From sequence record PV159336: a stretch of DNA of 64,000 nt. The stretch is one strand, 5' to 3'. Positions within the stretch are counted from its first letter, which is position 1; each line of letters opens with the position of its first letter. The translations under genes were made by a program, and so were the position numbers. The notes below the pieces were generated by a model. The model was not told the origin of the DNA and did no database searches. It saw only the letters and a program-made list of their open reading frames with translations. The stretch comes from Escherichia phage W22. This document shows positions 7,166 through 41,388 of the stretch, piece after piece.

Positions 7166-8176
7166 ATGGCAGAAGAAAGAAATTACACAAAAGCTCCTGC
7201 ACCAAATCTAAACAGAGCATACAAACTGTTAATAGGTACAGCTACTAATACTAAAGAAAAAAGGACAAAAAATTCCTCTTTCAAATCTACAGTAGACTTA
7301 GATACTAAACTAGGGGATGCTAAAAAATCAACCCCTAATTTGTATGTTATTACGGAGCACCAAATATCTTTCACAATAAGAAAAGATAATAATAAAGATC
7401 CTAATCAAGCCGAGATAACTATTTATAACCTAAGTGATGATACTGTTAATTATATTAACAAAGGTATTCGTAACAACTTGGCTGTTGCTTTGGCAGTAGG
7501 TTATGAAGGTCAAGAGTTAATTATGATCTTTAAGGGAACGGTGCAGTGGGTGAGTGATACCTTTAACAATACAGACAGACGTACAGTGTTACATTGTCTG
7601 GATGGTGGTATTAACATCTCCGAAGCAAGGACAAGCAGAAGTTATCCGAAAGGTACAAAAGTAAGTAAGGTTGTTAAAGATTTAGTTAAAGATTTAGGTA
7701 CTACAGAAGGTAATATTCACGTAGATACAGAGAAAACTTTATCATCTGCAACAGCTATGTGTGGGAACACATCACATTACTTAGAAAGTATCTGTAAAGG
7801 TATTGATCATAATGTGTCAATACAAGACGGATCTGTTTACGTGACACCAAGATCACAAATGTCTAGTGCAAGATGTGCATATATTAGCGCAGAAACAGGT
7901 TTAATTGGTAGTCCAGAACCTTTCCACAATGATATTAAACCGACACAAAAAGTAACCAAATCTTCTAAGAAAGCTAAAAAGCCTACAGATGGTGTTAAGT
8001 TCAGATGTGAGATGAACGGTGCTATTTTACCAGAAAAAACTGTTTGGCTCAAGAGCCATAACTACGATGGTGGTTTTAAGGTGGTGTCTGTTGTTCATAC
8101 AGGCGATAGGGAAGGTAAAGACTGGACAACTGAAGTAGAGTCTGTATCTGTATCTGCAATTATTAAGAAGGGCTAG
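7166..8176 (+). CDS. putative baseplate hub/tail protein
   Basis: 336 aa, position between tape measure and spike gene; assignment by synteny only. Confidence 0.3.
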   Translation: MAEERNYTKAPAPNLNRAYKLLIGTATNTKEKRTKNSSFKSTVDLDTKLGDAKKSTPNLYVITEHQISFTIRKDNNKDPNQAEITIYNLSDDTVNYINKGIRNNLAVALAVGYEGQELIMIFKGTVQWVSDTFNNTDRRTVLHCLDGGINISEARTSRSYPKGTKVSKVVKDLVKDLGTTEGNIHVDTEKTLSSATAMCGNTSHYLESICKGIDHNVSIQDGSVYVTPRSQMSSARCAYISAETGLIGSPEPFHNDIKPTQKVTKSSKKAKKPTDGVKFRCEMNGAILPEKTVWLKSHNYDGGFKVVSVVHTGDREGKDWTTEVESVSVSAIIKKG

Positions 8177-8178
8177 AA

Positions 8179-8916
8179 ATGGATGCTTTAAATTTTGTAA
8201 CAGCAATCCGTGGATTAATCAACGAGCAAGTTGCGGAAGTACATACATCTTTACCTGTAAGGGTAATTGGTGTAGATTATGGATCTAAGACAGTAACTTT
8301 AGAATCTATCGTAAAGAATACCAGATCTACTGAAGATGAAATAGATTACCCAACATTCCACGATGTTCCTTTTATGGTAAATGGTGGTGGTACAGGTAGA
8401 ATTTCATTTCCAATTAAAGCAGGAGATATTGGTGTTGTTGTCTTTTCAGAAAGAGATCCGTCGAATGCTTTCCAGACAGACGGAGATACAGCCAGTAGCG
8501 GAACATTAATTCAACCTTGTGGTTTGTATCCAGCCTGTTTTATTCCTAAGATAGCAACAGCTACGGATTCTTCTGAAGAAGTAGATTCTGAAAAAGTTGT
8601 TATCTCAAATAATAAGCAAACTTACGCTTCGTTTGATCCTAACGGTAATATATCTGTGTACAACACACAAGGTATGAAAATAGATATGACACCAGACAGT
8701 ATCGTTCTTACTGATGCAGGAGGAGGAAAACTTACACTGCAAGGTGGGACTATGACATATAAAGGTGGTACTGTAAATTTAAACGGTTTAACAATCACAC
8801 CTGACGGTCGTATGAAAGATAGTGGTGGCATTGGTTTACACACACATACACACCCTGTACGCGGTGTTGAAACTGGTGGTAGCACTGTTACTTCCGACAA
8901 ACCAAATGGAGGTTAA
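8179..8916 (+). CDS. baseplate central spike protein (gpV/gp5-like)
   Basis: 245 aa; N-terminal region resembles gpV-type spikes, Gly-rich beta-rich C-terminus ending in His-rich tip (HTHTHP). Confidence 0.5.
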   Translation: MDALNFVTAIRGLINEQVAEVHTSLPVRVIGVDYGSKTVTLESIVKNTRSTEDEIDYPTFHDVPFMVNGGGTGRISFPIKAGDIGVVVFSERDPSNAFQTDGDTASSGTLIQPCGLYPACFIPKIATATDSSEEVDSEKVVISNNKQTYASFDPNGNISVYNTQGMKIDMTPDSIVLTDAGGGKLTLQGGTMTYKGGTVNLNGLTITPDGRMKDSGGIGLHTHTHPVRGVETGGSTVTSDKPNGG

Positions 8917-30449: not shown

Positions 30450-31397
30450 TTAGAAACAGTGCAGGAAGTTTCGACCATATTGCAAACCAATAGGAGCAAA
30501 CGGGATATCATCATCGAAATCTTGAACAACAGGTTCTGGTTCTTTCGGTGCTGGCTCTTTCTTCTCTACTTTTTTAGTTTCTTTCTTAACATCTTGTACT
30601 GGAGTAGACATTCCACGGATAGCAGCAGCTACTTTATCAGACAAAGCAAGAACTTCACGAGCAGCTTCAATAATCTCTTCTGCCGTTACAGTTTTACCTG
30701 TATGATCACGACAAGCGTTAAGAATTGCGTGTCCAACTGAAGCACCAAGATCATAGTCAGTCACATCAACACCACGATCTTTAGCAATTTCAGCTTTCAG
30801 AGTAACAGTTGCAGATTGTACCACACCAGCCAAATCGAAAGCATCACCTTTCACACCAGCACGTAGAAGCTCCAGAGCGCCGTTTACAGCGTGTCCTGTT
30901 TCAATCCCTACGGTATCACGTTTTTTGTAGTTAGGCTTGTTACCGTCATTATTAGATGGCTTATTTCCACCTTTTGAAGAGGATTGCGCTTGCTGAACAC
31001 CTTCTGTTGAAAGAATAGTGATTTTACCTTTAGAGGAGTTGTAGTATGTTTTACCATTCCATTCGGAAGGTTTAACATCCATAGTTAGTTCTACGCCTTT
31101 TTCGATAGTAACCCACTTATCACCATCTTTAACTTGCAGGTTTTCATGTTCTGGGTGCAGTTTAACTTCACCTAGGCTAACCCAAACACCTTTATCATCA
31201 GCACCAGCACCTTTCTCTTTAATAAGCAGAGATGCTTTGTGAGTTGATTCAATTTTCTTATCTGGCTGACCTGCAACCTTAATATAAGAGACTTTCATTT
31301 CATCAAACTTATCTAGCTTGACATATTCGACAATACCTTCAGCCCAGAATGCTTCTTTTTTAGTACGACGGTCGATTTCAGAATTAATTACTGGCAT
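30450..31397 (-). CDS. putative ssDNA-binding protein with SSB-like acidic DDDIPF motif
   Basis: 315 aa; beta-rich N-terminal domain, helical middle domain, C-terminal FDDDIPF followed by 15 extra residues (APIGLQYGRNFLHCF). Confidence 0.4.
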   Translation of the reverse strand: MPVINSEIDRRTKKEAFWAEGIVEYVKLDKFDEMKVSYIKVAGQPDKKIESTHKASLLIKEKGAGADDKGVWVSLGEVKLHPEHENLQVKDGDKWVTIEKGVELTMDVKPSEWNGKTYYNSSKGKITILSTEGVQQAQSSSKGGNKPSNNDGNKPNYKKRDTVGIETGHAVNGALELLRAGVKGDAFDLAGVVQSATVTLKAEIAKDRGVDVTDYDLGASVGHAILNACRDHTGKTVTAEEIIEAAREVLALSDKVAAAIRGMSTPVQDVKKETKKVEKKEPAPKEPEPVVQDFDDDIPFAPIGLQYGRNFLHCF

Positions 31398-31413: not shown

Positions 31414-31812
31414 TTACATTACTTTAACACAAAACTCTCGTAAAAGAGTAGCGTCAGTTTCTTCCAACAGGTATTTACCAAGACCAATACCAAATCCTAT
31501 TTCACCACTTTCAAAATGGAGAATTTGTATCTTTTCTCCACCAAGGTTAATTACTTTTGCTTTTCCAGGATTGTCCAAAACATCTCGTATTGTGTCCTGT
31601 AGTAGCATTAGTTCACGTTTTGTGATAGTGGTTTCAGATATCTCTTTGTCTTCTACCCGCACTGTTAAACGGTTGTATCCACCAAAGAGACATAGTATTT
31701 GAATAAAAAAGGTATTATCTTGAGGTTCAACATCTTTTTTAGTTAGTTCAAGACGATTAGTTTCTCTACTGTAGAACGTCTCGACTAAGATTTTAGAACG
31801 ATTGTCTGTCAT
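31414..31812 (-). CDS. hypothetical protein
   Basis: 132-aa ORF on same strand in replication module. Confidence 0.4.
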   Translation of the reverse strand: MTDNRSKILVETFYSRETNRLELTKKDVEPQDNTFFIQILCLFGGYNRLTVRVEDKEISETTITKRELMLLQDTIRDVLDNPGKAKVINLGGEKIQILHFESGEIGFGIGLGKYLLEETDATLLREFCVKVM

Positions 31813-31855: not shown

Positions 31856-32470
31856 TTAAATCTTAAATTCTTCGTTGTTAAATGAATCCAGTGTACGTAC
31901 TTCTGGTTCTTTGGGAATGAAAACGTCTTTTACAAAGCGGAACATAGGGAAACGTTCTGCCATTTTACGGACGTGTGCTTCTTTACCTGTGTATCGGTGA
32001 TTAATAGTGCAAATATTAGTTTTCAATGCAAATTCAAAATCTGGATGATATACATAATTTTGACCATCCCAGTAACACAGGCAAATAGCTACGTCAAAGT
32101 TCCATACGATTTCACTGCGTACACCTTCTTCCATGATCATAAAGTTAAACTTAAGGTCTTTATAGTATGCTTCAAATACCCATTTCAAATGTGGTAGTTC
32201 GGCATAAGTGTGTTCTGTTTGCTTAGTAAGTTGTTTAACATTACGTGCACCAACACCCAACATCAAAAATTTCTCTACTAGCACGAGTGTATTGTGGTTA
32301 GGCATACGCAAGTAAATGTCAATGTTTTGTGCAGGTTTCTCTAATCGCCAATCACGTACAGCGCCGCCAGCTACAATTGCAAACGGATCTACCAGTTGGC
32401 ACATACGTAATACTTCTAAAGCGCGTACTTTTTGATCTTCAATATTCATATTTTCTCCTATCGTGTCCAC
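31856..32470 (-). CDS. minimal nucleotidyltransferase (CCA-adding/poly(A) polymerase head-domain-like)
   Basis: Motif FAIVAGGAVRDWRLEKPAQNIDIYL matches GGxVRD...DxD of class II tRNA nucleotidyltransferase head domain; only 204 aa. Confidence 0.4.
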   Translation of the reverse strand: MDTIGENMNIEDQKVRALEVLRMCQLVDPFAIVAGGAVRDWRLEKPAQNIDIYLRMPNHNTLVLVEKFLMLGVGARNVKQLTKQTEHTYAELPHLKWVFEAYYKDLKFNFMIMEEGVRSEIVWNFDVAICLCYWDGQNYVYHPDFEFALKTNICTINHRYTGKEAHVRKMAERFPMFRFVKDVFIPKEPEVRTLDSFNNEEFKI

Positions 32471-33054
32471 TCTTTATGTTGTTCTACATGCTCAAGCATT
32501 TCATTATACAGTGCTTTAAGATGTGGAACAACTCTTTCATCTTCAGTTTCAAAGAATTTTGTAAGCTGTTCTGCTTTAGCTTTCAACCAGCAAAGATGCG
32601 CTTCAATTTCAGTATTAAAACGCCCCAGCGTTTTCATGCGACCGTCTACTTTTATATTGGCTTTGTATTTATTACGATCTTTTTCGTAACTACAGCCTAC
32701 CATAGTTCCATGAGATCTTTTACTTACTCTATAAGCTAAGAACTTATTAAGATCTCCTGTTACTAAAAGACAGGTATCGGGAGAGTAAACCCTCCCTCCT
32801 ATAATATCTTTATCAAGTTCTAAGTTTTCCCAGTTTTCCCAAGTTTGCAACCAGGAGTAGAAATTTGAGAACAGTTTCCATTCTTCACAAACCGTCACCC
32901 CCTTATAACAAGGATCACGTTCTTGTTGGCAAGGGGAGTAACACCTCCCCAACATAGCCATCCATTTCATATAATGCGGCGTTAGTTTCTTACTACCAGG
33001 TAGTGTACTCTCGCCTTCCAAATCATTAATACCTTCACCATATACGGTAAGCAT
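32458..33054 (-). CDS. AP2-domain / HNH-type homing endonuclease-like protein
   Basis: N-terminal Cys-rich region (YKGVTVCEEWKLFSNFYSW) and AP2-like segment (KYKANIKVDGRMKTLGRFNTEIEAHLCWLKA). Confidence 0.45.
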   Translation of the reverse strand: MLTVYGEGINDLEGESTLPGSKKLTPHYMKWMAMLGRCYSPCQQERDPCYKGVTVCEEWKLFSNFYSWLQTWENWENLELDKDIIGGRVYSPDTCLLVTGDLNKFLAYRVSKRSHGTMVGCSYEKDRNKYKANIKVDGRMKTLGRFNTEIEAHLCWLKAKAEQLTKFFETEDERVVPHLKALYNEMLEHVEQHKEWTR

Positions 33055-33081: not shown

Positions 33082-35661
33082 TCAGTGACAAGTTGACCAT
33101 GAACTACCAACATCGTAACCAGCAGTGAGAGGTACATTAAGATTGTAATACTCACCAGCTTTATTAACAGCGATAGATGCTAATTCTCCAGCACGACTGT
33201 AGGCTGTAAACCAACCACCTTTCGGAGATTCATGTACGTTAGCCCAAATCTTGCCAGTACGTTTCTCTTCCTCTTCTTTCCAGGCGTTAACTTTATCCAA
33301 ACATTCTTTATCAATTTTCTTTTGTTCTTCTGGATCATCAACTTGAGTCCAACCTAAAGATTCTTTAGAGAACCATTTAAAATGCACCAGATCACGAGTT
33401 ACTTCAAGCTGTGCTTCATCGTGATATGCAATCATTTGTTGAACGAATGACTTATTTTTCCAGTCATCAACAAAAAAGTCAACAGCTAATCCTTCTTCTT
33501 CGATAAGATCATCGTAGATAACCATTGCTCTTTTTGCACAAATAACACCACCACTCTGGAACAGAGAGTTAAGTATTGCGTGTGCAGATCGTGTAGGTAC
33601 TTTCCTACCATCAATACCAAGAATGTATTTCTTACCTGTTTTAACCCAAAAATCATGCAGACGTTCTTTAAGAAGAGCAAGAGGCTTTGCAGCTTCCCAG
33701 AAAGCATCGTATACAAGCTGTCCTGTATACATATCACTACCAATAGTTTTTGCTACTTTTGCAGCTTGAGCACCATAAGTAATGCCATACTTAACAGATT
33801 TAGCAGGGCTTCGTTCAAACTTGCGACCAATAGTGTCAGAAATACGTCGAGCCATCATTGTATGAACATCATTAGGTTTTTCCAACAATAGAGCATTACA
33901 ATATTCGTGTGGTTCCTGCTCGTACCGCCAACAGTAGTGTGATTCTATTTTTGCCTCAAGAGAATCAAAATCATAACCAATTTGGAAGTATTTTGGAACT
34001 TCTACACCAAATAAGTTACGCATTTCATATCCGTACAGAGATGTTACACGTGGGATATTTGCTACTAGCCTATGCTTCATACGAGACGTAGCTGCATCAC
34101 ACGTTGCAGCAGGAGTTGGTATACGACCATCAGCCCTTACTGCCGCCAGATAACCTTTATCGTAATCCTCTTCATCTTCTTCCCAATCAGCGCCACCACC
34201 TAGAATAGAGTTTCTACGATGTTTATACGTAAGATACTGCACAATCTGCGTAGCATAAGGAAACTTTTCACCTAGTGCTTCCAAGTTAGGACAAATATCC
34301 TTCTCTTGCCCTTTTGTAAAGGAAGGGTTAGTAAGCACTTTAACACCACGACCTTTAGCTTTAGCAATACGATCTCTTAGTTTCCATTCCAAAGTTTCTG
34401 GTGTGCACTCCAGATGATCACATCTGTCCTGGCAGAAATTAGATGCTAATGTTTGATCAACATAGTCACGAATAGCCTTCTCCATTTGTGCTTCATCTTT
34501 CTTAATCTTAGTGCCAGATTTAAGAGTGATATCTTTATCTTTATATTCAGATGGACTCCAACCTAAACCAACTAACCAATTTTTAATATGTGTAGTGTCG
34601 TCTAAAGTAGCAGGTACTGTAGGATCACAAATAGGTTCTTCTGCTGGAATAGGTAGTTTAAACTCTTTACCTAATGCAAATAACCACCAACCATCTTCTT
34701 TTTGTACAAGTTCACCAGAATGTTTCTCTGCAAACTTTATCATGTTACTTGAAGGTTCACCATTCTTTTTAAACTGTAGTTTAGGTGGAATGAATGATTT
34801 CAAATAACCTTTAGTAGCAGGTTTAGGAGGTAGCACAGGTTCTGCCTCTAAACGACATGCTTCCATTCGAGCATCCAGATCACGAATATTATCTTCTGCT
34901 TGTTTCATATTGAAAGCAAAGCCACGGTGCTCTTGACGTGTAATAATATCAGCTACACGTTGTTCTAAGTTAAATGGTTCAGACCACTTGTTATAATCAC
35001 CCCACTCTTCCATCAAATAACGGAACACTGCGGTGTTAGCTTTGTTATCGTAAATACAGTAATACAGCATATCTGCTGCAAATGTTCTAAATCTTTCAGT
35101 TTCAGGAATGTTTTTTCTAAAATCAATTTTAACATCCCCTCCAGCTTTCTTAGATAACTCTGCCAGACTATGACCACCGAAGCGATCAGGGTTTAGTGTC
35201 TTACTTAAGATCATAGTATCACAAATTTCAATGTTACTATTACCCCAAGTATTGTACTTAATACTGTAGTTGAGTTTAAAAAATAATTTAATTGCCAGTA
35301 AGTCGAAGTTAATGATGTTGTGTCCAACTACTTTGGTAATTTTATAGTTTGAATTACCTTTAAATTTACCTGTTCCATTTACAAAATCAGGAAAATCTTT
35401 AAGAGGGAAATGGGTATATTCTAAATGCTCATATTCCTCCAGTCGGTATTCATACTTTCCGTCAGTCTCAATATACGGACGACCATCGAAAAGATATTTA
35501 TCACCATCATGGAAAGCAATAATCTCTCCAGTATCATGACTTTCGCACACAATACAGTGCATTGCAAAACTATCTTTTAAACGATATGGACTTGCCAAGT
35601 AATCTACACTTTCGTCATTAAGCAAGTTGTTACTTTCAATGTCGAAAGTAAAAGCTCCCAT
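33082..35661 (-). CDS. DNA polymerase, family A (T7-like) with 3'-5' exonuclease
   Basis: 859 aa; N-terminal Exo I motif FDIES, motif B KSVKYGITYGAQ, motif C AYHDEAQ. Confidence 0.8.
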   Translation of the reverse strand: MGAFTFDIESNNLLNDESVDYLASPYRLKDSFAMHCIVCESHDTGEIIAFHDGDKYLFDGRPYIETDGKYEYRLEEYEHLEYTHFPLKDFPDFVNGTGKFKGNSNYKITKVVGHNIINFDLLAIKLFFKLNYSIKYNTWGNSNIEICDTMILSKTLNPDRFGGHSLAELSKKAGGDVKIDFRKNIPETERFRTFAADMLYYCIYDNKANTAVFRYLMEEWGDYNKWSEPFNLEQRVADIITRQEHRGFAFNMKQAEDNIRDLDARMEACRLEAEPVLPPKPATKGYLKSFIPPKLQFKKNGEPSSNMIKFAEKHSGELVQKEDGWWLFALGKEFKLPIPAEEPICDPTVPATLDDTTHIKNWLVGLGWSPSEYKDKDITLKSGTKIKKDEAQMEKAIRDYVDQTLASNFCQDRCDHLECTPETLEWKLRDRIAKAKGRGVKVLTNPSFTKGQEKDICPNLEALGEKFPYATQIVQYLTYKHRRNSILGGGADWEEDEEDYDKGYLAAVRADGRIPTPAATCDAATSRMKHRLVANIPRVTSLYGYEMRNLFGVEVPKYFQIGYDFDSLEAKIESHYCWRYEQEPHEYCNALLLEKPNDVHTMMARRISDTIGRKFERSPAKSVKYGITYGAQAAKVAKTIGSDMYTGQLVYDAFWEAAKPLALLKERLHDFWVKTGKKYILGIDGRKVPTRSAHAILNSLFQSGGVICAKRAMVIYDDLIEEEGLAVDFFVDDWKNKSFVQQMIAYHDEAQLEVTRDLVHFKWFSKESLGWTQVDDPEEQKKIDKECLDKVNAWKEEEEKRTGKIWANVHESPKGGWFTAYSRAGELASIAVNKAGEYYNLNVPLTAGYDVGSSWSTCH

Positions 35662-37942: not shown

Positions 37943-38212
37943 CTAAAATGATTCGTTTGTCTCCATAATATATTGCATTTCCAAATCTTCCATATGTTTC
38001 TTAAATTGGTAAACAATTTCCGATGGGGAAATATCTATATCAAAAAGTTCTTTTGTACCAGAATAAAACCTAATACCGTCAACAATAAGTCCACCATAAT
38101 AATCCCAATCACTTTCTCGTGAGAAAGGATTAGGTTCTTCATAATAGTAATCTACTTCAACAATAATAGGTTCTTTATTATCTTGTTTATACTCAAAATC
38201 AAAAGTGTTCAT
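37943..38212 (-). CDS. hypothetical protein
   Basis: 89-aa acidic ORF coupled upstream of glycosyltransferase gene. Confidence 0.35.
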   Translation of the reverse strand: MNTFDFEYKQDNKEPIIVEVDYYYEEPNPFSRESDWDYYGGLIVDGIRFYSGTKELFDIDISPSEIVYQFKKHMEDLEMQYIMETNESF

Positions 38213-39156
38213 TATAAATCCTCGATAAGCAGTCTGCGGGTTTCATTTAAATCATCAATATTGTAGTTATCTCTTACATATTTAGCAAGAGCCAATCCTT
38301 TCTCAATACAAACATCAGGAGATTCGATTAAGTATTCTACAATATCTTTCCACTCTTTAACTGAATCAGCAAAGAAGATTAGATCTTTAAATTCTTCAGT
38401 ATAGTAGTTCTCTCGTGGAGAACAAACGAGTGGCAAACCTTTAGCACCAGCCTCAAGAATTTTTAAATTACTTTTGGCATTATTAAAATGATTATTTACT
38501 AATGGAGCTATGGAGATTTGATGACCATCGTATGCTTCCATATAACACTCATAAGGACGAATACCTTCATAAACACAATCTGGTTGAATCTCTTCTTTAA
38601 TTTGCAACCATTGAGCACTACTTAACTCTTCGTGATCTCTACGAAATCCACATAAAGTTAAATCTTTACCAAAAGCAGGAAGAATTGCTAAATCATGTTT
38701 ATGTGTTTCACTTCCCGCCCAAACCAGTGGGCTTTTAGAATAACGATCTTTAGTAAGAACAAACTGCCCTTCATCAAAAGGTAGTCCGTTAGGCACAATA
38801 TGTACATTATCATTGTATTGGCTTAATTCAACCTTTAATGCTGGAGTTGTTGTAGTTACAAGATCGCTTCTTTCAAGGAACCATTTTAGGTCATCTCGGA
38901 TTTGACTTTCAAATAATCCTTCCAGCATATGCCCTTCAGGAATAATTAAAGAATCATCCAGATCCATTACCAATTTAAACCCAAGTTGTTTAAGAGCCAG
39001 GAAACCTGGCTTTCCACGAGTTGGTACTCCATTGAATACAAAAATATTATGCTTAGGATTAATAGTCAGTTTGCGTTTATATGGCAAAATGATTCTATGA
39101 AAATCACATACACTATACCTTTCATGTCCACGTGTGTCAAGAATAATATTAGGCAT
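38212..39156 (-). CDS. glycosyltransferase, GT-B fold (GT4-like), paralog 1
   Basis: C-terminal KILEAGAKGLPLVCSP resembles GT4 donor-binding motif; clear paralog of adjacent gene. Confidence 0.5.
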   Translation of the reverse strand: MPNIILDTRGHERYSVCDFHRIILPYKRKLTINPKHNIFVFNGVPTRGKPGFLALKQLGFKLVMDLDDSLIIPEGHMLEGLFESQIRDDLKWFLERSDLVTTTTPALKVELSQYNDNVHIVPNGLPFDEGQFVLTKDRYSKSPLVWAGSETHKHDLAILPAFGKDLTLCGFRRDHEELSSAQWLQIKEEIQPDCVYEGIRPYECYMEAYDGHQISIAPLVNNHFNNAKSNLKILEAGAKGLPLVCSPRENYYTEEFKDLIFFADSVKEWKDIVEYLIESPDVCIEKGLALAKYVRDNYNIDDLNETRRLLIEDL

Positions 39157-39167
39157 ATGGCTCCTTG

Positions 39168-40181
39168 TTAAAGACTTTCAATAACTTGACGACGCAGTTC
39201 ATTGGCATCTGCAAGATTATAATTAAGACGAACGTGTTCTGCAAGCATCATACCACGATCTTCTGTGTATCTAGGGTTCCTCATTAGCTTGACAACTTCA
39301 TAATGCCAAGATGCTTTAGAGTCTGCATAAATAACAGCCTTTGCATCTACCGGATTGAAGTACGGCAGCACAGGAGAACAGATAATAGGAAGACCCTTTG
39401 CACCTGCTTCCAAAATCTTCAAATTGCTTTTACAGTTGTTGAAGTCATTATCTACCAGAGGAGCAATTGCAATACTGTGACCGTCATACACAGACATATA
39501 CTCACCTAAATTTTTAATAGCTGGTTTATACTGTGCATTTGGAATTTTACGTTTTACTTTAACCCACTCCGCAGTAGTTAGATACTGACTATTATTTCCA
39601 ACAGGTGCAGAAGGATACACTTCATACCCTGCAATTGTCAATAGCGTATCATCAAATGTGTTAGCTACAAGAGATAAATCAGGTTCATGGCTTGCTCCTC
39701 CAGCCCAAACGATAGGCGTGTCAGAATAACGGTCTTTTGTCAAAGTAAATTGACCTTCATCGTAAGGTAGTGCGTTTCTAATAACGACAACATTACGATT
39801 TAAATGACGAATTTTGTAAGCTAGGTATTCTGTTGTTACAGTAACAACATCTGCTAACTTAACCATCTCTACAATAGTCTTTGAGTGATTAGTAAATACG
39901 CCAGCCATATAATGTTCAGGATTAAGCGAATAAAAGTCATCTAAATCAACAATAATCTTAACACCTTGTGCCTTCAGGCGTTTAACTTCGTCTGATCCAC
40001 GAGAATACACTCTATTAAAAACTAAAACGTCTTTCTTAGGCTTAAACGTATTTCCCGCAAATGGCATTACAATACGATGGTAATCACAACCACTGCCTAA
40101 CTTATTATCACACTTAAGTACAGGAGTATTAGGATTTACCATATTTTTGAGCCTCCTCATAAGAGATAAAAGTTTTACCAT
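39168..40181 (-). CDS. glycosyltransferase, GT-B fold (GT4-like), paralog 2
   Basis: Shares blocks with 38212..39156 (LTKDRYS..P.VWAG, YDGH.I.IAPLV.N.FNN.KSNLKILEAGAKGLP); tandem duplication. Confidence 0.5.
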   Translation of the reverse strand: MVKLLSLMRRLKNMVNPNTPVLKCDNKLGSGCDYHRIVMPFAGNTFKPKKDVLVFNRVYSRGSDEVKRLKAQGVKIIVDLDDFYSLNPEHYMAGVFTNHSKTIVEMVKLADVVTVTTEYLAYKIRHLNRNVVVIRNALPYDEGQFTLTKDRYSDTPIVWAGGASHEPDLSLVANTFDDTLLTIAGYEVYPSAPVGNNSQYLTTAEWVKVKRKIPNAQYKPAIKNLGEYMSVYDGHSIAIAPLVDNDFNNCKSNLKILEAGAKGLPIICSPVLPYFNPVDAKAVIYADSKASWHYEVVKLMRNPRYTEDRGMMLAEHVRLNYNLADANELRRQVIESL

Positions 40182-40815
40182 TGCGAAGATCCTCCAGTGA
40201 TTGTTTATATTGTTCCCAGTTTACACCAATCCCCTGTTCTTTCTCTTCTTTTGACAGATTCGCAAAAGGTAAAGGGTTGTCTCCAAACACATCATCAGGA
40301 TGGATAAACGCCATAATTCGAATAGGACATGGTACGCCCTGAATACCTCGGTTCAAACCTGCTAGTGGAACGCGCTGAATCCACTCTGCATCTTCATATC
40401 CATAACCGTGGGTGTATGAGCGGAAATAGCCAGCTTTCTCAATAACTGCACGGGAATACATACCAAACTGGCACATACCTAGTTCCCAAATAACCACTTC
40501 ACCTTCAATACCTTTTACTTTATCTTTAAAGTATTCAGGCATACCAAAGAAATCCCAGCCATTTTCCTTAGCTTGTTTTACAAAATATGTTTCCCAACCT
40601 GGCACAACCGGATAGCAATCATCATCAAAAATAAACCAGTAATCATACCCTTCATCATAAAACTTTTTCATCAGTTCATTACGAGCATATGCAACACCTT
40701 TTCGTTCCCGATCATACTGTACAACAAAAGTAGCATTAGGATCAGTCACAAGATAATCTTTAAGAGGACGCTTACCTACAGTAATAACACCAACACCAAT
40801 TTTTGTATTTTCCAA
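40129..40815 (-). CDS. glycosyltransferase, GT-A fold (DXD motif)
   Basis: 228 aa; YDYWFIFDDDCYP (DXD) and downstream GYGYEDAEW motif. Confidence 0.5.
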   Translation of the reverse strand: MENTKIGVGVITVGKRPLKDYLVTDPNATFVVQYDRERKGVAYARNELMKKFYDEGYDYWFIFDDDCYPVVPGWETYFVKQAKENGWDFFGMPEYFKDKVKGIEGEVVIWELGMCQFGMYSRAVIEKAGYFRSYTHGYGYEDAEWIQRVPLAGLNRGIQGVPCPIRIMAFIHPDDVFGDNPLPFANLSKEEKEQGIGVNWEQYKQSLEDLRNGKTFISYEEAQKYGKS

Positions 40816-40824
40816 AATAACTCC

Positions 40825-41388
40825 TTAAATAATTTTATTCATGTCTTGACAATGTAAAAGGTGTGAAACAGCTTTTCTAGGATCATCATTACCTAAACGG
40901 TATGTGTGAAATAAATATAACCCACGTAGTAAACCTAGCCTTTTATTGTTAGCGTGTAATGCTTTAGAGAAAATTATATCAAACTGTATTGATCTTTCCT
41001 CAAAAGGGATTTCATTCCACAAACTCTTACGAAAGAGAAGAAAGAATCCTGCTAAGATAGCATCTGTAGGTACTTCCTCTATTGAGTTTCCCCATTCTAG
41101 ATGTGCTCTTTTTGCAATCTCAATGTGGTGTAATATATTTGGATCTTCACTTCTTTCATTATTAAATAATTGATATGTTGATCCCAGTCTATTACAAGAT
41201 GCACCAAGAACATCAAAATCAGGATTTGAACGGACTATTGATTCCAACCAAGCAGGTTGTTCTGGAAGAAGAAACATTGTATCAATGTCTCTTAGGCAAA
41301 TCCAACTATCTTCTGGTAAGACACTTATTGTGTCATTGATACCTTTTCCAATATCTCCAGAAAGATAGGGAGTTATGTGAAATATCAT
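40825..41388 (-). CDS. possible GT-A-like glycosyltransferase / hypothetical
   Basis: 187 aa; ICLRDIDTMF could be a DXD-type motif; weak. Confidence 0.3.
   Translation of the reverse strand: MIFHITPYLSGDIGKGINDTISVLPEDSWICLRDIDTMFLLPEQPAWLESIVRSNPDFDVLGASCNRLGSTYQLFNNERSEDPNILHHIEIAKRAHLEWGNSIEEVPTDAILAGFFLLFRKSLWNEIPFEERSIQFDIIFSKALHANNKRLGLLRGLYLFHTYRLGNDDPRKAVSHLLHCQDMNKII

Follow-up and report, generated by a model that had tools for sequence, protein, structure and literature searches.

A stand-alone class II-type nucleotidyltransferase of a phi92-like coliphage with profile-level homology to the catalytic core of the anti-defense protein Gad2

What would a phage do with the catalytic head of a class II CCA-adding enzyme or poly(A) polymerase when the rest of the enzyme is missing? 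The question is raised by a minus-strand open reading frame (ORF) at 31856..32470 in a 64,000-nucleotide stretch of Escherichia phage W22 (sequence record PV159336), which we refer to as the window. An original prediction, made from the sequence alone, described the product as a minimal nucleotidyltransferase of 204 amino acids (aa), with the motifs AGGAVRDW and NIDIYL of such a head and none of the usual neck, body and tail domains, and proposed repair of tRNA 3' ends, tailing of RNA or nucleotide signaling as its possible functions. The ORF list of the window confirms the reading frame, and both motifs are present, at residues 27-34 and 42-47 of the 197-aa form that is used for numbering here (see below). 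In this work, we describe a relation that the earlier reading did not contain, namely a profile-level homology to Gad2, a phage protein that counters the Gabija defense system, together with an unusual substitution at the metal-binding site of the window copy. From these we tentatively propose a counter-defense role for the intact form of the enzyme.

Relation to the N-terminal core of Gad2

Gad2 is a 400-aa Gabija anti-defense protein of Bacillus phage SPbetaL7 (Yirmiya et al., bioRxiv 10.1101/2023.05.01.538930). According to the same study, knock-out of gad2 makes SPbetaL7 sensitive to Gabija and a homolog restores the resistance; SPbetaL7 Gad2 is toxic when expressed, and a non-toxic homolog still blocks Gabija; and AlphaFold predicts a nucleotidyltransferase domain in the protein. 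Anti-Gabija activity is reported there for only SPbetaL7 Gad2 and a Brevibacillus homolog. Using the Gad2 sequence from the supplement of that preprint, we compared it with the family of the window protein by profile alignment. With hhalign, the window family scored 91% against Gad2 alone (E 1e-6, 118 columns) and 95.1% against a 40-sequence Gad2 alignment (E 3e-8, 114 columns), in which residues 22-152 of the family are paired with residues 25-141 of Gad2. The same family profile aligned with Escherichia coli Cca over just 24 columns, covering motif A only, at 10%. The exact window protein also carries an unmarked precomputed match to PF26128:Gad2 (E<=1e-5), as does its 99% relative, and other family members have precomputed PF26128 matches as well. 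In the opposite direction, Gad2 matches PHROG 1614 (E 8e-6), the group to which the window protein is assigned below, as well as phrog_4400, a group likewise reached by the window protein.

The likeness includes individual motifs. Both Gad2 and the window family, which are alike phage-encoded, have AGGA, D-x-D-x-Y, a glutamine on strand 5 and F-D-x-(S/T)-(I/V)-C, and the position of N102 in the window protein pairs with Q88, which is invariant in Gad2. They differ in that Gad2 reads AGGAITS where the window family reads AGGA(P/V)RDW, and in that Gad2 keeps the DxD motif whereas the window copy is without its first aspartate. Judged by these alignments, the window family is best described as homologous to the N-terminal nucleotidyltransferase core of Gad2. 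The short family also forms a bridge between Gad2 and the class II CCA-adding and poly(A) polymerase enzymes, because its profile reaches the class II motif A, while the Gad2 profile found nothing in the PDB by sequence. A very large family of ~200-aa phage proteins, including those of the phi92-like coliphages and labeled in databases simply as 'nucleotidyltransferase', thus corresponds to the bare catalytic core of Gad2. In a speculative reading to which we give a low probability, these short proteins might be the smallest functional unit of counter-defense enzymes of the Gad2 type. They offer a small, confidently modeled and genetically tractable E. coli-phage protein for probing the mechanism of Gad2.

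A class II head fold

Remote homology searches and structure prediction, which had been suggested as checks, were both run and point to the class II head fold that the original prediction had proposed. An AlphaFold2 (AF2) model computed from a 104-sequence alignment reached a predicted local distance difference test (pLDDT) score of 90 and a predicted template modeling score of 0.84; it replaced a single-sequence AlphaFold model that was discarded (pLDDT 34). When this model was searched with Foldseek, the first 46 PDB matches were all class II enzymes, with ~150 residues of the query aligned to targets of 340-520 aa. Enzymes of the Pol X type, MenT1, terminal nucleotidyltransferases (TENTs) and CD-NTases scored below class II in the structure comparison. 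The predicted absence of neck, body and tail also agrees with the model, in which nothing but a short helical extension follows the head.

Within this fold, the first half of motif A (A27-G28-G29-A-V-R32-D33-W34; 32348..32371, minus strand) corresponds to a helix-turn containing the GG pair, and has the family consensus AGGAPRDW. G28, G29 and W34 are invariant in the 104-sequence alignment, R32 is kept in 102 and D33 in 96. The second half provides the metal-binding DxD position, which reads N42-I-D44 in the window protein (32318..32326, minus strand). A C-terminal helix (residues 158-166 of the model) contains H159 and K162 in an H/Y-x-x-K motif that is followed by R/K-F-P (31964..31975, minus strand); K162 is found in 99/104 sequences and His or Tyr at 159 in 102/104. 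The gene of phage arall is cut short by a stop in place of codon 194 (E194*), which suggests that the last four residues are dispensable and fits the low model confidence past residue 180.

The sequence evidence for class II membership is limited. The window protein scores 16.1 bits with the Pfam model PolyA_pol (PF01743; E 0.015) against a cut-off of 23, and 11.3 bits with the NCBIfam CCA equivalog NF009814 (E 0.13) against a cut-off of 290. Only 14 of the 104 family members reach PF01743 at E<=0.01. The family profile matches PDB chains of CCA-adding and poly(A) polymerase enzymes at E 0.05-0.3 over ~40 residues, covering motif A only, and a phmmer search of the PDB with the single protein returned chance-level matches only. 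In its modeled structure, the protein is clearly more similar to class II head domains than chance would allow, although the sequence signal is weak and confined to motif A. We therefore describe the protein as a predicted stand-alone class II-type Pol-beta nucleotidyltransferase head domain, without body or tail. A cellular protein of similar make-up, NP_344798.1 of Streptococcus pneumoniae (PDB 2la3), consists of a 'CCA-adding enzyme head domain' standing alone; it has 9% identity to the window protein and no detectable sequence relation to it.

A large catalogued phage family

While a stand-alone head domain in a phage had been regarded as unusual, it turns out to be ordinary, because the protein belongs to a large family that is already catalogued in several collections. 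It matches PHROG 1614, labeled 'nucleotidyltransferase', at E 9.8e-32 over residues 7-193, and PHROG 10174 at E 1.5e-25. An exhaustive phmmer search gave 429 clusters at 50% identity (E<=1e-3) with lengths that nearly all fall within 175-240 aa, and 140 of the 150 clusters listed are 168-240 aa long. In BFVD, 143 viral models match the structure model at E<=1e-3, many of them short and annotated as 'poly A polymerase head domain' or 'nucleotidyltransferase'; their sources are giant viruses and phages that infect Vibrio, Pectobacterium, Dickeya, Caulobacter, Pseudomonas, Providencia and Aeromonas. RefSeq already labels phi92 gp158 and PHB05 gp151 as 'nucleotidyltransferase'. A conserved signature, AGGA(P/V)RDW...DxDxY...Q, runs through the family. 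The window protein is thus a member of a known and widespread phage family that is functionally uncharacterized.

Two groups of named relatives can be compared with it. Gp22 of the Klebsiella phage fHe-Kpn01, a Drulisvirus podophage, is a 182-aa member of PHROG 1614 (E 1e-39) that aligns with the window family by hhalign at 84%; together with Gad2, it is the nearest relative that has been studied by experiment. Its motif is more classical (GGCIRD...KDVD), and its strand 5 probably still bears an acidic residue. In E. coli the protein is toxic, and toxicity alone has been shown for it (PMC7291057). Autographiviridae phages of Pectobacterium have been reported to encode 'tRNA nucleotidyltransferases' (PMC7693777), and short nucleotidyltransferases of Pectobacterium and Dickeya phages match the window protein by BFVD model. 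A scan of Klebsiella phage KP34 found no homolog.

Asparagine at the first metal-binding position

The residue that sets the window copy apart had gone unnoticed in the original prediction, where 'NIDIYL' was quoted with asparagine in the place of the first aspartate of DxD. Had both catalytic aspartates been absent, this would have spoken against a nucleotidyltransferase; the actual finding lies halfway, as the first aspartate is lost and D44 is kept. Residue 42 is Asn in the window and Asp in all 152 other aligned family sequences, while Asp44 is invariant (153/153). Six close relatives (alia, arall, ECGD1, SD2, 92CQ and PHB05) all have Asp42, encoded by GAC or GAT, where the window has AAC at 32324-32326. 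The proteins of ECGD1 and 92CQ differ from the window protein at residue 42 only, with 3 and 14 nucleotide differences in their genes. The Asp42 protein was counted in 226 contigs and the Asn42 protein in 2-3. No identical phage record was found for the 61 nucleotides around the Asn42 codon, and pattern scans for Asn42 in IMG/VR and in a metagenome contig collection returned only Asp42 alleles.

An identical Asn42 protein is nevertheless encoded by a metagenome contig from ENA, L019 (codon at 1124-1126). Its gene has 12 synonymous differences from the window gene and no amino-acid change, its flanks are 96% identical and it does not have the homing-endonuclease insertion that is found beside the window gene, so that L019 is clearly a different genome from the window phage. 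The presence of the same protein in both indicates that Asn42 is no private sequencing error. The Asn codon is AAT in L019, whose nearest Asp relatives have GAT, and AAC in the window, which is 3 bases away from ECGD1 with GAC. The simplest reading is that one and the same base changed from G to A twice, independently, a double origin that rests on two alleles.

In enzymes of the Pol-beta fold, altering an aspartate of DxD normally removes activity, and the change from Asp42 to Asn should therefore largely abolish catalysis. With Asn at both 42 and 102, one carboxylate of the canonical triad is left in the window protein, and the PolyA_pol score falls from 19.9 bits with Asp42 to 16.1 bits with Asn42. 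The window copy is probably impaired in catalysis, as a loss-of-activity allele or a binding-only form. We put at about even odds that this phage carries an inactivated or non-catalytic allele, in the sense of a decaying or a binding-only pseudoenzyme, which would be compatible with any of the functions considered below for the Asp42 form. The rarity of Asn42 and the lowered score speak for it. On the other side, the ORF is otherwise intact, the identity of the protein in L019 despite 12 synonymous differences suggests continued purifying selection rather than decay, and Asn can still ligate Mg2+ weakly. That Asn42 arose twice and was selected as a silent form, acting as a binding decoy or sponge or allowing the phage to evade a host system able to sense the activity, seems to us an unlikely extension of this idea. 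In either case, nature supplies both an Asp and an Asn version of the metal site, and with them a ready comparison of active and inactive forms.

Proposed counter-defense role and possible nucleotide tailing

We propose that the Asp42 form is a Gad2-like enzymatic counter-defense nucleotidyltransferase, and that the window copy with Asn42 is expected to be crippled; we give this reading a probability of roughly 0.4. The Asp42 form would bind Mg-NTP through Asp42, Asp44 and the GGA(P/V)RDW turn, and would transfer a nucleotide to an acceptor that could be a nucleic-acid 3' end, a defense protein or another nucleotide. Expressed together with the replication genes, the enzyme might blunt a host defense that acts in DNA replication or at DNA ends, as Gad2 does for Gabija. 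Its role would then be that of an accessory counter-defense or host-interference enzyme and not of tRNA CCA addition, and on present comparisons we favor counter-defense over tRNA repair. In a distant metagenomic phage contig (L006), a homolog of the window protein (P0153) has a homolog of Gad1 (PF25705) four genes downstream, at 7504-8547.

Several points weigh against this proposal. For the short (~200 aa) family, a defense role would rest on the likeness to Gad2, whose own mechanism was listed as unknown in a review of February 2026 (PMC12904381). Gad2 also has a conserved C-terminal region of ~260 aa (about residues 140-400) that is absent in the window protein and may be the part that targets Gabija. 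Genomic context gives little help, with no neighbor gene conserved across seven distant homolog loci, and PADLOC returned no match for the nucleotidyltransferase protein and nothing meaningful for its neighbors. Finally, the two Asn42 alleles without other changes could mean that the activity does not need Asp42, which would weaken the expectation that the window copy is crippled.

Among the other functions considered for the intact enzyme, template-independent 3'-tailing of RNA or DNA tied to replication, in the manner of a poly(A) polymerase or terminal transferase, survives best but is doubtful. Such an enzyme could, for example, modify phage DNA ends or replication intermediates. Gene order is in line with it: in fHe-Kpn01 the Gp22 gene directly follows the DNA polymerase gene, and the same order of polymerase and then nucleotidyltransferase is seen in the replication block of the window, where the polymerase is of family A. 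In two distant loci, the homolog lies within a few kb of DNA_pol_A/DnaB genes, and in two others near ligases, including L006 with an RNA ligase and a DNA ligase upstream of P0153. Loss of the ribose-reading RRD motif would also be compatible with the use of dNTPs. However, the linkage to replication genes is not universal, as the homologs in L003, L005 and L014 are located among small unknown genes or ribonucleotide reductase genes, and the family is acidic to neutral. Gabija reportedly acts at the ends of phage DNA (PMC12904381), and 3'-tailing could for this reason be the mechanism behind the proposed counter-defense role.

Comparison with CCA-adding enzymes

Repair of tRNA 3' ends, in which a minimal CCA- or A-adding enzyme would mend host or phage tRNAs during infection, was the first function offered by the original prediction and is now improbable. 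The alignment of motif A with class II enzymes does speak for it. In comparison with PDB 1miv, 3aql and 4wby, the GGxVRD of motif A and its spacing to DxD are common to both, although the full motif (GGxVRD and DxD) is broken in the window protein, where GGAVRD is followed by N42-I-D44. Some records name relatives 'putative tRNA nucleotidyl transferase / poly(A) polymerase', and the lineage invests in tRNA biology, PHB05 having 16 tRNA genes as well as an RNA ligase alongside a phosphoesterase.

The remaining features of class II enzymes are missing. Motif B (RRD) is found in 1 of 153 family sequences and motif D ([ED]DxxR) in 14, at scattered positions and conserved at none; both are absent from the window protein, as are the neck, body and tail that class II enzymes have. 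Class II enzymes further have a third acidic residue. The equivalent in the window protein, which we take to be residue 102 (32144..32146, minus strand) as the third-carboxylate site of the Pol-beta fold, was placed on beta-strand 5 from the secondary structure and strand order of the model and not by superposition. Across the 153 sequences, this position is occupied by Gln 121 times, by Asn 23 times, by Asp 8 times and by Glu once, and the 104-sequence alignment has Gln in 82 cases and Asn in 22. Together with PF01743 and NCBIfam scores under their cut-offs, a family median isoelectric point of 6.1 that is unlike that of a general RNA binder, and the toxicity of the PHROG 1614 member in the podophage fHe-Kpn01, this argues that the window protein is not a CCA-adding enzyme by membership. 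We caution against labeling these proteins as tRNA nucleotidyltransferases in annotation.

The window contains no tRNA gene, and the 16 tRNA genes of PHB05, which are located at 51.3-54.2 kb (positions 1278-4159 of L025, outside the window), all encode their 3' CCA; the host has Cca already. We accordingly rejected a role in phage tRNA maturation. In the literature, we found no characterized phi92-type or minimal phage CCA-like enzyme. The RefSeq record of PHB05 leaves the 16 tRNA genes unannotated.

A host-shut-off toxin of the MenT type, which would add nucleotides to the acceptor ends of host tRNAs or to another essential RNA and so block translation, is less probable still. Both Gp22 of fHe-Kpn01 and SPbetaL7 Gad2 are toxic in bacteria, as this would predict. 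Toxicity upon over-expression is common among phage proteins, though, and the non-toxic Gad2 homolog that blocks Gabija implies that toxicity is not the function there. MenT toxins (e.g. MenT1, PDB 8an4) form a DUF1814-type subfamily that is paired with antitoxins; the window protein fits class II better, and no antitoxin-like or other partner gene is conserved beside it, so that neither its fold nor its surroundings place it with MenT or AbiEii. A signaling nucleotidyltransferase of the CD-NTase (cGAS/DncV-like) kind, making an oligonucleotide, cyclic or linear, as a messenger or decoy, would suit the Pol-beta fold with GG and DxD and the small stand-alone size, which matches a nucleotide-only substrate, but it is very improbable given that fold and sequence models place the protein outside the CD-NTases, that its motif is GGxxRD and not their GS...[DE]x[DE], and that PADLOC finds no match.

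Start codon and gene boundaries

The length of 204 aa given originally followed a mechanical ORF with a GTG start that is probably wrong. Translation almost certainly begins at the ATG at 32449 (32447-32449), which gives a coding sequence of 197 aa at 31856..32449 on the minus strand, with its stop codon at 31856-31858, as checked by translation. We draw this from four observations: a Shine-Dalgarno sequence, AGGAGA (32454..32459, minus strand), can be read 4 nucleotides 5' of the ATG; relatives are annotated with 197 aa; contig L019 has an in-frame TAA directly 5' of the conserved ATG; and a public protein collection contains the 197-aa form and not the 204-aa form. The GTG-initiated extension of 7 codons (32450..32470, minus strand) is probably untranslated. 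AGGAGA shares bases with the TAG codon (32458-32460) that ends the upstream gene for an HNH endonuclease, and AGGAGAAAATATG is likewise found in L019, which is without this gene.

Genomic neighborhood

The window comes from a phi92-like E. coli myophage of the genus Justusliebigvirus, with DNA 97-99% identical to phages arall, PHB05, alia and others. The nucleotidyltransferase gene is the third in a same-strand block that encodes, in order, a polymerase, an HNH protein, the nucleotidyltransferase, a 132-aa protein, a 315-aa protein and a methyltransferase. The first gene (33082..35661, minus strand) encodes a T7-type family A DNA polymerase according to the annotation of relatives. Between it and the nucleotidyltransferase gene lies the HNH homing endonuclease gene (32458..33054, minus strand; PHROG 953, E 7e-75), which both L019 and phage 92CQ lack at this position. 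Some relatives have a longer polymerase instead, which is 1182 aa in L019 and is annotated as intein-containing in the SD2 record.

Downstream of the nucleotidyltransferase, the 132-aa protein (31414-31812, minus strand) belongs to PHROG 16560, of unknown function. The 315-aa protein (30450-31397, minus strand) matches PHROG 4477, also of unknown function, and one relative annotates it as a single-stranded DNA-binding protein (SSB). In this SSB-like protein, the E. coli SSB tail motif DFDDDIPF is internal, with 18 residues (APIGLQYGRNFLHCF...) after it.

Elsewhere in the lineage, the first 50 kb of PHB05 (1-50 kb, outside the window) include an RNA ligase gene adjoining a phosphoesterase gene. 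PHB05 also encodes a nicotinamide phosphoribosyltransferase and a ribose-phosphate pyrophosphokinase, which could rebuild NAD, and a Sir2-like protein. All of these are likely further counter-defense or repair genes. A link to a paper on a DNA-hypermodification pathway was considered and then dropped. Inside the replication block of the window, beside the primase/helicase gene, four consecutive genes at 38212-41388 (minus strand) are all annotated as glycosyltransferases in PHB05, which encodes a dTDP-rhamnose pathway elsewhere in its genome.

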